From the NCBI GenBank assembly GCA_964016885.1, contig OZ024756.1, positions 15,872,001-15,936,000 on the forward strand: a stretch of 64,000 nt of DNA, read 5' to 3'. Source of the stretch: Eledone cirrhosa (taxonomy: Eukaryota). Each line of letters opens with the position of its first letter. Position 1 is the stretch's first letter. Positions 1 to 52,962 of this stretch are shown here, piece by piece. The notes under the pieces are model-generated. The model was not told the DNA's origin. It saw only the letters and a list, made by a program, of their open reading frames with translations, and made no database searches. Made by a program: the position numbers and the translations under genes.

Positions 1-150
1 TTTTGAAATGCGCATAATAAAATACATGGAACTCATTTAACCATCTTTTGATCTTATATATTATGTATACTCCAGTCCTACAAACTGTAGAGTGCTTCTT
101 ATCCGATATCTGCATTGCTTTATTGTACTACAATAAAACTCACCTCCTAC
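1..150 (+). mobile_element. PLE pseudo-LTR fragment: 3' half of a hammerhead (GAAA-tgcgca-TA-ataaaat) plus tail
   Basis: Matches 9231-9288 directly and 8706-8853 as reverse complement; ends in (TA)n; cut by the window edge. Confidence 0.75.
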
Positions 151-252
151 ATATATATATATATATATATATATATATATATATATATACACACACATGT
201 GACTGTAAAAAAAAAAAAGAAATATATATATATATATATATACATACATACA

Positions 253-716
253 TGGAGGCGCAGGGCTTAGTGGTTAGAGCATTGGGTTTGCAATCGAAAG
301 GTTGTGAGTTCAATTCTCAGACCGGGTGATATGTTGTTTCCTTTATTTCACATTGCTCCAGTTTGCTCAGCTGTAGAAATGAGATGATAGGACTGGGGGT
401 CCCTATTATTCCACTGCAAAGTGGTCATGGACGTGCCACAGCAAAAAAGCACCCAGCCCACACTGTAAATGGAAAAAAAGCACCCAGCACTCACTGTAAA
501 TGAGGTTGCTGTTAGGAAGGGCATCCAGCCATAGAAATCAGTTCCTGTCCCACTCTTGCAAGCAGGGGAAAGCGGATGTAAAATGATGAGTAAACTGGAG
601 CAATGTGAAATAAAGTCTCTTGCTCAAGGAAACAACACATCACCCGGTCTGAGAATTGAACTCACAACCTTTCGATTGCAAGCCCAATGCTCTAACCACT
701 AAGCCATGTGCCTTCA
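253..716. mobile_element. tRNA-derived SINE family A: + copy 253-588 followed by an inverted head 588-716
   Basis: A box ggcttagtgg, B box gagttcaattc, CORE-like ccttgagcaagacac, RTE-like tail. Other copies at 7115-7490(-), 14978-15120(-), 17300-17597(-), 21050-21190(+) and 51529-51855(+). Confidence 0.85.
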
Positions 717-974
717 TACACATATATGATTGTAAAACCCCCCAGAGTTCCTGACCTACAGAGGTGATACATTGTCACATCTAGGGTAGCTTTAGTACTG
801 AAGATATAAACAAGATGGAACAAATTTTAGGGAGCTACCATCTATGCTCCCTGTTGATAATGAAGGATGATAACTGGGAATCAGAATAGGGTGGGGAAAT
901 GTTTAGAGAGCTATCGTTTATGCTTCTGGTGGCATTAAAAGGGATTCCCTCTTTGAGAGGAAGATAAACTGTAT

Positions 975-1460
975 GATGCTTGTCTACAGAATATGATATT
1001 GCTTGGTAATAATTTGTGGAGAATGTGTGAAGGTTGAGAAGAAGCAAAGCAAGCATGGACAGATGAGAAGACTGAGCTGGTACAGACATGCAATATCAAG
1101 GCATAGGTGAGTTGATATAAACTTGGCATAAAAGGAATGAGATGTAGTGTGCAGGAGAGAAGACGGTGCTGGTACAGACATGGCATAAAAGGAACGAGAT
1201 GTAGTGTCCAGGAGAGAAGACGGTGCTGGTACAGACATGGCATAAAAGGAATGAGATGTAGTGTGCAGGAGAGAAGACGGTGCTGGTACAGACATGTTTG
1301 CAAATGGAAGGAAGTTACAGCAGAAGTGGTGGGAACTGATCTCAGGATGTTGAACCTCACAAAGGAACAGAATTAGTGGAGAAATGTTGTGTGATGGAGA
1401 TGACACACCCAACCTAATATAAACATGGAAAAACGGACACAGAGATGATGTTGATGATGA
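975..1460 (+). mobile_element. Decayed RTE LINE 3' fragment with a triplicated 57-bp unit
   Basis: GIKGMRCSVQERRRCWYRH x3 matches GIRCCLLERRLRWYGH of the RTE ORF; ends in a ggaaaaacggac...(GAT)n tail. Confidence 0.75.
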
Positions 1461-1880
1461 TGAATACTAGTCAGGTTATATTCAAATCTGAATTGCTATC
1501 ACTTCCTGTCAAACAGGAAACTGTATTATTTGATGACATGACTGGCTTTACATCCTCCTAATGTTACACTTTGATCTTCCTCCCTTCTTTTCTCTCCTCC
1601 TCTCCTTCCTTCTCAAACCCACCACAGCTGTAAATAAAACTCAACACATTTATTAAACATCTTCCAGTCTTATCACCATAAAGAATATATATATATATAT
1701 ATATATATATATATATATATTTATATGCATATTTATATATTTATATATATATATAATTGGTGTGGGATGCTTAAAACGTCCATAAGCGGTAGGCCGTTTG
1801 AGCACTCGATGCTCTTACAGAGCAGAATATGATATCACATAAGAAACGGAGAATCAGTGTTGCGACAAATAAAATTTATT

Positions 1881-1977
1881 AGACATATTACAACCGTTTC
1901 TCTGGTGACCAGCTCGAGGCACGATCCATGTAATGATCGAACCAGACTCTGAAATCGCAAGGTCCTCAGATACGTCT
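1881..1977 (-). ncRNA. Type I hammerhead ribozyme motif (PLE-type, extended stem II)
   Basis: Minus strand: agacgtat-CTGAGGA-[62 nt with tctggt/accaga]-GAAA-cggttg-TA-atatgtct; 8-bp stem I with one G-U; AATAAA follows; the module is flanked by (TA)n. Confidence 0.7.
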
Positions 1978-2333
1978 CGATTCATATATATATATATATA
2001 TATGTTTATTTATTTTTATATATATATATATACTATAGAGTAAAGCATGTCCAGAGAATTATTTGATAATATATATACATCATCTCTACTCCCAATCAGC
2101 ATAATTAACCACACAAAAAATCAATTAGACCAGGCTATAAGAATAAAAGGCTCCTATGAAGAAACAGTAAATAAATATGCTACAGCACCGTCTTCGCGGC
2201 CAACCGCTATAGAATATTTACCCAACATTTCAACAGCACGTGGAAATTAATTAAATATACGGTCAACCATACATAATTAGGTAAAAATTAAAGTTAGAAA
2301 TGCTTATATACATACCAGGATTAAATCACTAAA

Positions 2334-49927: not shown

Positions 49928-50084
49928 AAACACGTGTGTGGTGATTTTAAAGACCTGTTAATCTTAATATATCCATTACATATCTGTGTCTCAATATTCA
50001 CAAACTTTTCAAAGAAGAATTTCATGAATACATGCCTAATATATATGGGAGGTGGGTGGGTTATACAATAAAGGCGTATTTTTG

Positions 50085-50490
50085 GGTGGATTATCCAATC
50101 GGAGGTATTTTGGGTGGGTTAACCAATAAAGGGGTATTTTCTTCATACCCTACTTACCCAGCTGTAAAATATATTGCACTGTTTAACATGGGTAGGTGGG
50201 TATTCCAATAGACGGGTGGTTTCTCTATACTTTATCACAACCCAAGTGTAAAATGTATCGCACTGTTTAACATGGCTGGTTATTTGAATTGCGGGGTGAT
50301 TTCTTTGCCTCTTATTTACCCAGGTATAAAATATATCGCACTGTTTAACATGGGTGGGTTATCCATTAGAGGGGTGGTTTCTCTGTACTCTAACTTCCCA
50401 CATATAAAATATATAGCACTGTTTAAGATTGGTGTGTTGGTTTATCCAATAAAGGGTGGTTTCTCCCTACCCAATCTTCCTTACTGTAAA
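50085..50490. repeat. Degenerate 76-89-bp tandem repeat (aaaatatatcgcactgtttaacatgg core), 4-5 copies
   Basis: Core recurs at about 50166, 50250, 50327 and 50406. Confidence 0.7.
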
Positions 50491-51528
50491 ATCCATCACT
50501 GATTACCAAATCTGTTCAGCGTTACATTTGCAATAAAAACCATGGTTATTAGAAGTCATATTCTAAGATTCCGAGGCTGATTCAAGCCAAATCACTGTCA
50601 AACCCTCTTTACAGAATGTAAATTCGTGAAACCCTTTCAAACACTGTATTTATTTTACCAAATGAAAATCATAAATGAACTTTACAATATCTAACTTGTT
50701 TGTGTTTGTTTTTACTTGAGATTCAACAGCGTGTGTGAGACAGTAACTTCTCATTTTATTGTAGCTCCTAAAGTAACAACTTCCACTGCTCATTAGATCA
50801 CCTAGGTAACATAACTTATCAACTGGTTGTATGCAGCTTTTCTGGGGCTCTTAGTACTAATTACTCCTGCTACATTATATATATACTTGTGTAAAAGTCA
50901 AAATTTTAGACAATTTTTAAGGTTAAATTTACAGAGTTGGCCATTACATGGATACTACTTTTGATAGGCTTGACATCCAAAATACTGCATCAGTAGCAGA
51001 AGCCCAACTGATCTTGGATCAAATAAAAACAAAAGCACCATGAATTACAATAATATTACTGATTGTAAGCACTGAAACACATCCTTGTAAATAACAAAAT
51101 CATAAACAAAATAAAATAAAATATTTACTTATATTTTAACAGATTAGCTTAGTGCAATCAACTTATATTTCATAAATACAAATACAGTATATTTCCTTGA
51201 GTAATATATCTACCGGTATACCATTACCTACCATAATACTGTGTTCATGGCTAATACCTGCATTTTGCATCACGACTCTCCAGTCACATTATTTTAGTAT
51301 CCGTGGGGATAAAGTCACAGGAAGGCTACAGCAAAGTAAGCATGCATTTGAGTAAATTTTAATTTCAGATATGAATTTACCTTTTGTGTTATTTCAACAT
51401 GGAGGATGATACCTTGATTTACAGATGTTGACCTCTTATAAGTGAAATAAAATGGTCGACTTTTATACGAAATCTAAGTTGTGAACTTTTACATAAGATC
51501 GACTATATATGGGATATAGATATATGTA

Positions 51529-51855
51529 TGGAGGCACATGGCTTAGTGGTTAGAGCATTGGCCTTGCAATCGAAAGGTTGTGAGTTCAATTCTCAGACCG
51601 GGTGATGTGTTGAGCAAGACACTTTATTTCACATTGCTCCAGTTTACTCAGCTGTAGAAATGAGATGATAGGGATTGAGGTCCATATCATTCCACTGTAA
51701 AGTGGCCGTGGAGGCGCCACGGCAAAAAAGCACCCAGCACTCACTATAAATGAGGTTGGTGTTAGGAAGGGCGTCCAGCTGTAGAAATCAAGCCAGAATC
51801 AGTTCCCGTCCCACCCTTGCAAGCAGGGAAAAGCGAACGTAAAATGATGATGATG
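51529..51855 (+). mobile_element. SINE family A, near full-length copy
   Basis: ggaggcacatggcttagtggttagagc...gcaagcagggaaaagcgaacgtaaaatgatga. Confidence 0.85.
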
Positions 51856-52189
51856 TAGATGTATATGTGTACACACACACACACACACGCACACATATAT
51901 ATATATAAATATATGTGAATGTTGGTGCTGGCATTTTGTGTATGATTTGTTTTTTAGAAAAGTGGATGATCGAGTGCATCTACCTGAAATGGAAAAAAAA
52001 ACGTTTTGTAAAAAGAGCTATACTTATACACATGGGTGTGTGTTATACGTCCGTACAAAACTAAGAAGAAATGTGTGTGCAGGTAAGTATGAAGTTATGA
52101 GCAAAAGTGGCTCCAGGGGTGAGTATTTCACTCCCAACCGGATTGGCCCCGTTGTTGGTACCTTCCGATGTGTTACTGTCAGTAGTAGT

Positions 52190-52840
52190 GTTATTCATTA
52201 GATTGGGTATAAACTTAATTTTCTCCTTGTAACCTGCATTATTTAGGGCATTAGTATAATAGCTATCGAGGTTAACTTTGCCTTTCATCCTTATGGGGAC
52301 AATAAAAAAAAAAAAGTAGCAGTAATGTACTGGGTAATTGCTGGCCTTGTGCCAAATGTAGAAACAATTATTACTAAGGATTGGAAGAGGGTCGGACACC
52401 ATGCTTTGCAGCAAAGAGTTACGGCCCTTTATGGTCTGAGTTCAAATCCCGCCGAGGTTAACTTTGCCTTCCATCTTTACGAGGTCGATAAAATAAAGTA
52501 CCAGTAATGCACTGGGTAGTTGCTGGCCTTGTACCAAAAGTATAAACAATTATTATAATAGCTAGCTACGCTATTAAAGGTTTCCAGAGAAGAAATCCTA
52601 CGGGACACCTATTTACTATGGCCCTCTTGACTGATCCAGGATGGTTGGAGTTGTCATTTATATACTTGAGGCACTCGTTCGGCTTGTGGGACACATAACG
52701 TCCAGGGGGTCGACTATCTACTATCGTCTATGACTTTGCTGAAGCCCAAGATTTTCAAGAATCTAATTAATCTTTTCCTAATCCTAGTTACCATATTGTT
52801 GATATGCTTGAGTAGAGTAAACAGAGCATTGTCACGGTAT
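52190..52840 (-). mobile_element. Penelope-like RT/thumb remnant, interrupted by SINEs
   Basis: Manual translation: YRDNAL (decayed YRDD)...RIRKRLIRFLKILGF...HKPNECLKYINDNSNHPGSVKRAIVN/VSRRISSL, then YYTNALNNAGYKEKIKF after the SINE insert at 52268-52555. Confidence 0.75.
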
Positions 52841-52880
52841 GTGTATGTATATATATATATATATATATATATATATATAT

Positions 52881-52962
52881 AATATAAGATCAAAAGATGG
52901 TTAAAGGAGTTCCATGTATTTTATTATGCGCATTGTACTACAATAAAACTCACCTCCTACAT
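52881..52962. mobile_element. Collapsed fold-back copy of the 8706-9289 pseudo-LTR family
   Basis: Minus-orientation arm up to the stem III palindrome atgcgcat, joined directly to the plus-orientation tail gtactacaataaaactcacctcctac. Confidence 0.7.

Follow-up and report, generated by a model that had tools for sequence, protein, structure and literature searches.

We analyzed a 64,000-nt stretch of the Eledone cirrhosa genome (GCA_964016885.1, contig OZ024756.1, positions 15,872,001 to 15,936,000, forward strand), referred to below as the window. It contains short modules with type I hammerhead ribozyme motifs, most of them inside a PTPN1-like phosphatase gene. Very probably, five families of these modules are the truncated 3' terminal repeats of Hydra-clade Penelope-like elements (PLEs) and a sixth is a 688-nt retrozyme; the insertion of all six into TA microsatellites was likely the work of the endonuclease (EN) and reverse transcriptase (RT) of Hydra-clade elements. 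The class is already known, and the window does not stand out from the rest of this genome. Craig et al. (2021; PMC8557442) describe the Hydra clade as having hammerheads in its pseudo-long terminal repeats (pLTRs) and (TA)n targets, and they include Hydra-1_Obim from Octopus bimaculoides.

The type I hammerhead pattern used for scanning comprised the core CUGANGA, stem II, GAAA, a self-complementary stem III, UH, and stem I. Defects were counted in the core, in stem I pairs 1 to 4, and in stem II pairs 1 to 3, and the self-complementary stem III was mandatory. The window yielded three motifs with no defect (cores 2406-, 8892-, and 9192+), seven with at most one (adding 1969-, 18773-, 18903+, and 29863+), and nine with at most two (adding 30148- and 30700+). 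The corresponding means in 100 block-wise dinucleotide shuffles of the window were 0, 0.04, and 0.17, with maxima of 0, 1, and 1. Therefore, the hammerhead motifs are real. They are Penelope-type minimal hammerheads with a palindromic stem III, as an initial annotation made from the sequence alone had proposed. The scan recovered nine of the ten main sites in that annotation and agreed with its predicted cuts after 9246 and 29963. The tenth site, 31099, has the core CTTGATAA and failed even at two defects.

The window was also read by eye, with the exception of the greater part of two long TA-rich arrays. A further candidate, at 8477, has the core CAGAAGA, lacks stems I and III, failed the scan at two defects, and has no hammerhead fold. 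The 31099 and 8477 core departures recur across their respective repeat families, that of 31099 having a degenerate core, and family searches found no parent element for either. The copy at position 1 had been listed as decayed or partial, but it carries a perfect motif with its core at -33, which the window edge splits; the opposite arm of this pair sits just left of the window. Two other copies on that list are partial in different ways. The one at 2559 has lost stem II and keeps part of a hammerhead, and the one at 52881 begins at -9 and has lost the core.

The annotation had distinguished at least six families by their stem sequences. All six (A to F) were confirmed, and every one is multicopy in the genome. 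For each of them we fetched the 30 best-matching loci, which are not a random sample; the 40 evenly spaced stretches described below and the pattern matches are the exceptions. In family F, CCGAAGA replaces CUGANGA throughout the family (U4C), and 17/30 loci pass only at two defects.

The motifs in the collected loci fell into 45 clusters, 19 of which had at least three members. Across these 19 clusters, which are related to one another, we compared pairing at positions that the scan did not demand. It exceeded that in shuffles at stem I position 5 (14/19 versus 8.3), stem I position 8 (13/19 versus 7.7), and stem II position 5 (16/19 versus 10.3). Stem I positions 6 and 7 and stem II position 4 were not above shuffles. 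In 11/19 clusters, stem II has a T-T or C-A mismatch at its foot. This is a family trait, which published PLE hammerheads share (PMC4209133; PMC8557442 supplement), and not decay. In monomer folding, stems I and II folded well in families A and D (z of -2 to -4.3), and families B, C, and E and the 31099, 2559, and 8477 sequences did not fold above shuffles. A scan of Rfam at an E value of ≤10 was uninformative on hammerheads, the matches listed (150 of 840) all being microRNA models on TA or CA repeats.

In longer copies of five of the six families (A, B, D, E, and F), ragged 5' ends continue upstream into same-strand Hydra-clade RT/GIY-YIG sequence. This argues that their modules are 5'-truncated pLTR ends of coding elements, which protein motifs would assign to the Hydra clade. 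Loci L197, L198, L201, and L204 each have a single open reading frame (ORF) with RT and C-terminal GIY-YIG domains upstream of a hammerhead-bearing pLTR. In L197 (family A), two hammerheads 3,865 nt apart flank the ORF, and L204 (family E) is a full hammerhead-ORF-hammerhead unit of 2,683 nt. Motifs of the RWK/DKT type were read in both families. Those of family A are RWI (RRLRWITF), DKT in place of DKG (HSDKTNN), YRDD, a CxCx5C linker (CNCPVKNKC), CxxC-E (CNLCLCE), and CxH (LCLH), and those of family E include RRIRWK and KSDKH. In the Hydra clade, CxxC and CxH surround the conserved E and N. A same-strand EN lies upstream in 6/30 loci of family E, in 6/30 loci of family F, and in L225/L239, L230, and L235 of family D. 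Family B has a 3' untranslated region (UTR) of about 1.9 kb, and 20 of its 25 loci selected by the EN end carry Hydra EN/RT matches, collinear toward the hammerhead. Seven relatives of 697 to 729 amino acids were found, with no clade name attached.

The examined copies of the Hydra-like ORFs carry frameshifts. By eye, they lack the CCHH residues. The endonuclease is C-terminal, not N-terminal, in all ORFs seen, and on this basis we rejected a Naiad-type PLE, a group with an N-terminal GIY-YIG and without a canonical hammerhead. Within the window, the RT remnant at 52190-52840 matches Hydra-like frames (best E value of 5e-5 in a local search), and the old copy around the 2559 site resembles L216, which has Hydra RT/EN sequence upstream. 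The elements resemble the published Hydra clade in their C-terminal GIY-YIG without CCHH, RWK-like and DKT motifs, CxCx5C and CxxC/CxH motifs, pLTR hammerhead, (TA)n targets, inverted 5'-truncated copies, and one-sided tail (PMC8557442). Unlike in that description, stem III here is a loop-free palindrome of 6 to 10 nt, stem II is often 30 to 100 nt, and the tails are about 75 to 200 nt instead of 30 to 40.

No same-strand PLE ORF was found upstream of family C (0/30 unselected loci). In locus L208, a 688-nt unit is repeated 2.5 times head to tail between TA runs, with one hammerhead per whole unit, and at C2:377.14 Mb three family C matches lie 684 nt apart. The longest plus-strand frame is 67 amino acids, and the GC content is 36%, under the 45 to 50% limit for non-LTR retrozymes. 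A family C 22-mer has 196 exact matches in the genome. The unit folds with a z of -1.8 and is not rod-like throughout. Family C resembles metazoan non-LTR retrozymes (PMC7229834; Li et al. 2026, 10.64898/2026.07.22.740005) in its non-coding head-to-tail unit, single type I hammerhead, and PLE-type ends. Its unit is longer than the usual 150 to 450 nt but lies within the 51- to 972-nt range of Li et al. It differs in that at most about 2.5 to 3 units were seen and these are dispersed in (TA)n. By these features, family C is a putative non-LTR retrozyme. The initial annotation had taken the modules in general to be non-autonomous, which holds for family C and not for the other five families, the truncated ends of coding PLEs. 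Outside the window, L198:1088-4353 (C77) is a clear retrozyme array, a young one with a 310-nt unit and 11 hammerheads head to tail plus one opposed copy.

As annotated, the GIY-YIG sequence (3441-4124) and the RT remnant are both PLE-derived. The GIY-YIG sequence did not supply the modules; it belongs to a family whose pLTR shares no sequence with them. That family is very abundant and young; a first look with 3441-3980 gave 33,350 genome candidates. Its representative L021 (C3:263873500-263883400) has a 1,217-amino-acid frame with a long Asn-rich insert. The copies of L021 are near-identical, and many keep frames of more than 1,000 amino acids. The window piece and L021 share a C-terminal GIY-YIG domain, CCHH-type residues, a Cx4CxxC linker, and an end in (TA)n. 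These are features of Neptune-type PLEs in PMC8557442, and the family appears to be Neptune-like by such features as opposed to a tree separating Neptune from Nematis. Its pLTR differs from the six hammerhead families, having only a core-like motif (CTGACGAT-stem-GAAA) with a weak stem I in unrelated sequence. We rejected 3441-3980 as the hammerhead source because 16 long copies have this different pLTR.

All six families have fixed 3' ends, a short one and a long one (Table 1), and in the four families checked these go with ragged 5' ends. Of 392 arms ending at a short or long end, 364 adjoin a TA run. We collected 121 back-to-back pairs and set aside 18 with an irregular end. One arm was short and the other long in 100 of the 103 classifiable pairs (P about 2e-26 versus one half); a few loci may have been counted twice despite de-duplication, and the two ends of family C had been noticed before the formal pair test was made. 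Conceivably, such pairs arise at the DNA level, by fold-back, template switching, or gene conversion at hairpins, and the footprints would then be silent on RNA cleavage and priming. Family A junctions do recur at an internal palindrome, where the arms are joined -121 to -126 from the cut in 14/30 loci (window 9108-9136; examples L357-L386 and L450). These joins also suggest that two cDNAs anneal there. DNA-level duplication would put the same 3' end in both arms, however, and the ends differ in 100/103 pairs.

The 5' ends of family C bear on the same question. They fall within -4 to +5 of the predicted cut in 13/89 loci, versus 1.4 expected from the neighboring 100 nt. The excess was present in a first batch (5/30 versus 0.7, P of 8e-4) and in a repeat batch (8/59 versus 0.7, P of 8e-7; 59 of 60 loci, one skipped). 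Six of the 89 copies start exactly at +1. The other copies mostly continue across the cut, and 41/89 reach beyond -190. The pile-up suggests that the ribozyme may cut in living cells. At several near-cut ends the copy folds back at a small inverted repeat, as a DNA-level origin would have it, but three copies (L441, L485, and L504) pass cleanly from (TA)n to +1 and show no fold-back. Consequently, we consider it unlikely that the pairs and +1 ends arose at the DNA level.

We lean, if only slightly, toward the view that the insertions record the PLE mechanism, with two-end priming at two fixed sites and with the retrozyme copied from both self-cleaved linear RNA and circles. The GIY-YIG domain of a Hydra-clade protein would cut a (TA)n tract, and both DNA ends would then prime reverse transcription at two different internal RNA sites downstream of the hammerhead. 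The two cDNAs would be joined head to head, often via a short palindrome. Synthesis would usually halt within a few hundred bases and would thereby leave a short hammerhead module between TA runs. In vitro, the protein of an Anolis PLE is known to start reverse transcription internally and to cut AT-rich DNA (PMC11167929). Stems resembling ACTCC...GAGTG are visible after the short end in families A, D, F, and C, though not consistently by folding. The arms of a back-to-back pair are on opposite strands and are unable to pair within a single RNA. Hammerheads in head-to-tail transcripts would form dimers through the loop-free palindromic stem III and cut in this state. Family C would borrow the same enzyme, with some cDNAs running off the cut 5' end to give copies that start at +1. 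Most would cross the cut site, for which an uncut or re-ligated (circular) template would be needed.

Several points weigh against this account. The placement in the Hydra clade follows from motifs and not from an RT tree with reference Hydra proteins, and Pfam gave no match on the PLE frames. Hydra-clade PLEs are generally short (<3 kb; PMC8557442), whereas two coding families here are longer, family A at 3,865 nt. Family F carries the U4C change, and its CCGAAGA hammerheads are only candidate ribozymes. Most of the 13 near-cut family C ends are fold-back junctions beside the inverted repeat GGGATT...AATCC, so that microhomology could explain part of the pile-up, and family A has no pile-up at the cut (0/30 loci). 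In vitro, insertion of the Anolis PLE did not need hammerhead cutting, and that study found no RNA ends at the cut (PMC11167929). Finally, the very abundant Neptune-like family could be an alternative mover of family C.

The initial annotation had also described the motifs as a dense genomic population, and this was borne out. As background, we took 40 evenly spaced 10-kb stretches (400,000 bases) of the 3.0-Gb genome. They held 14 perfect and 34 near-perfect motifs, versus 0 and 0.15 in 20 shuffles. These densities (35 and 85 per Mb) extrapolate to about 105,000 perfect (57,000 to 176,000) and 255,000 near-perfect (bootstrap 142,000 to 375,000) motifs in the genome. The seven motifs in the 64-kb window match this background (P = 0.34). 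Therefore, the claim that they cluster in one gene fails, and we rejected local clustering. The modules do end in (TA)n as claimed, since a TA tract lies no more than 150 nt 3' of the cut in 25/33 sampled motifs versus 14% of 3,360 random positions.

Hydra coding sequence made up 4,594 of the 400,000 sampled bases, which is scarce while the motifs are many, and most copies of every family are short. This could mean that the majority of the short modules are self-standing, as non-autonomous retrozymes or as derivatives like short interspersed nuclear elements, and are mobilized in trans. Such a description holds for family C; tandem hammerhead arrays exist elsewhere (the 310-nt unit of L198), and the 31099 and 8477 families have no parent that we could find. 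Even so, the 5' ends of five of six families are ragged and continue into Hydra ORFs, and severe 5' truncation alone accounts for short copies. We regard the self-standing explanation as improbable for most modules.

The gene is PTPN1-like, with one exon 96% identical to O. bimaculoides PTPN1 and 86% to Argonauta. Because another exon is found upstream, some 440 nt outside the left edge of the window, all sites are intronic other than 52881, which is about 20 kb past the last coding exon seen. That last exon, encoding a C-terminal hydrophobic tail, is doubled (31849-32040 and 32570-32776), and its first copy ends earlier, at a repeat insertion. Selection of the hammerheads to regulate the phosphatase pre-mRNA is highly improbable: five intronic motifs are on the sense strand, and the edge copy and 9192 share a palindrome and could in principle pair, but both strands are used, the density is that of the genome background, and the copies are 80 to 99% like dispersed family members. 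The PTPN1 introns would instead be a passive landing ground for insertions.

Table 1. Features of the window and positions of the fixed 3' ends of the six hammerhead families
Feature	Position	Strand	Remarks
Family A (F8707) putative pLTR end, long arm of back-to-back pair	1..150	+	Core 33 nt before window, intact hammerhead, predicted cut after base 16
Family B (F1881) pLTR end, putative Hydra-clade PLE with long 3' UTR	1756..1983	-	Core 1969, predicted cut after 1889
Family C (F2334) 5'-truncated copy (-83..+308) of 688-nt unit	2038..2421	-	Perfect hammerhead, core 2406, predicted cut after 2338
Old internally deleted pLTR/3' UTR copy, partial hammerhead at 2559	2506..3106	-	73-79% like L216
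C-terminal GIY-YIG piece of Neptune-like PLE	3441..4124	-	One in-frame stop, own pLTR missing
Fold-back repeat, other family (8477 candidate)	8420..8672	.	TA-flanked; core CAGAAGA, non-canonical
Family A back-to-back pair	8707..9297	.	Both motifs perfect
Family A minus arm, long end	8707-8971	-	Core 8892, predicted cut after 8838
Family A plus arm, short end	8973-9297	+	Core 9192, predicted cut after 9246
Coding exons of PTPN1-like phosphatase gene	10281..32776	+	96% to O. bimaculoides PTPN1 exon
Family D (F18709) back-to-back pair	18556..19009	.	Minus arm, long end, core 18773; plus arm, short end, core 18903
Family E (F29765)	29765..30019	.	pLTR of 2.7-kb putative Hydra-clade PLE
Family E small minus arm, long end	to about 29765	-	Paired with plus arm 29820-30019
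Family E plus arm, short end	29820-30019	+	Core 29863, predicted cut after 29963
Family F (F30106) back-to-back pair	30061..30965	.	Core variant CCGAAGA
Family F minus arm, short end	30425-30061	-	Core 30148
Family F plus arm, long end	30430-30965	+	Core 30700
Old repeat family (31099 candidate), TA-flanked	30990..31164	-	GAAA-CAATTG-T-C, degenerate core
Decayed Hydra-like RT remnant	52190..52840	-	Interrupted by copies of short dispersed repeat
Family A minimal pair	52874..52960	.	Minus arm -9..+50 (short end, core lost) and plus arm +103..+131 (long end)
Family A fixed 3' ends	about +50 / +131 from cut		
Family B fixed 3' ends	about +60 / +133 from cut		
Family C fixed 3' ends	about +308 / +425 from cut		
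Family D fixed 3' ends	about +45 / +150 from cut		
Family E fixed 3' ends	about +60 / +240 from cut		
Family F fixed 3' ends	about +49 / +225 from cut		

The window has other repeats as well. Judged by eye and from a partial translation, 60127-62560 (+) looks like a long interspersed nuclear element (LINE) of the RTE type, unrelated to the hammerheads; fragments of an RTE-like LINE were seen by eye at 4290-5810 and 13470-14520 (-) and at 63113-63720 (-). Degenerate (TA)n/(TATG)n repeats form two very long arrays, at 32922-43949 (11 kb) and 52961-60127 (7 kb). Intronic minisatellites are at 22354-24094 (43-bp unit), 24156-24792 (28 bp), 25286-25673 (56 bp), and 12813-13406 (63 bp).

Parts of this picture are in print. 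The hammerheads of PMC4209133 are likewise type I with a palindromic stem III and an unpaired base at the foot of stem II. They too form many families per genome and are mostly single or in opposite-strand pairs 100 to 700 bp apart, which that paper ascribes to truncated PLEs. Its counts, 2,000 to 9,000 per genome, are below our estimate, and "octopus," "mollus," and any cephalopod are absent from its main text. In axolotl, 126,247 type I motifs (PMC7229834) are spread over 28.2 Gb (Li et al. 2026), a rough comparison only because the descriptors differ. By the sampled motifs, this octopod genome would carry one minimal hammerhead per 12 to 30 kb, several times denser than the published animal counts compared here. 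Retrozymes have already been proposed in print as PLE derivatives. Inverted truncated copies and a tail of 30 to 40 bp on one side are described qualitatively by Craig et al. Their listing has one octopus family with 4 aligned ends, compared with many families and about 10^5 motifs here. The initial annotation had left open whether such modules were described for this lineage; one family is (Hydra-1_Obim, in the PMC8557442 supplement). In the open-access literature, we found no paper on the scale of cephalopod hammerheads, on the short-plus-long rule or twin priming, or on 5' ends at the cut site. The main text of an O. vulgaris repeat paper (PMC13282606) contains none of the words "ribozyme," "hammerhead," or "Hydra."

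The families found here also suggest that a very large load of Hydra-clade elements is missing from octopod repeat libraries. What PLE hammerheads do has been called unclear (PMC8557442), and both their role and the PLE insertion route are still debated (PMC8557442; PMC11167929). The families described here are useful for this reason, because they offer exact positions at which the mechanism can be addressed: two RT start sites each and a cut site marked by copy 5' ends. If the proposed mechanism is true, these insertions would provide evidence at the genome level for germ-line cutting by a dimeric hammerhead of the PLE type.

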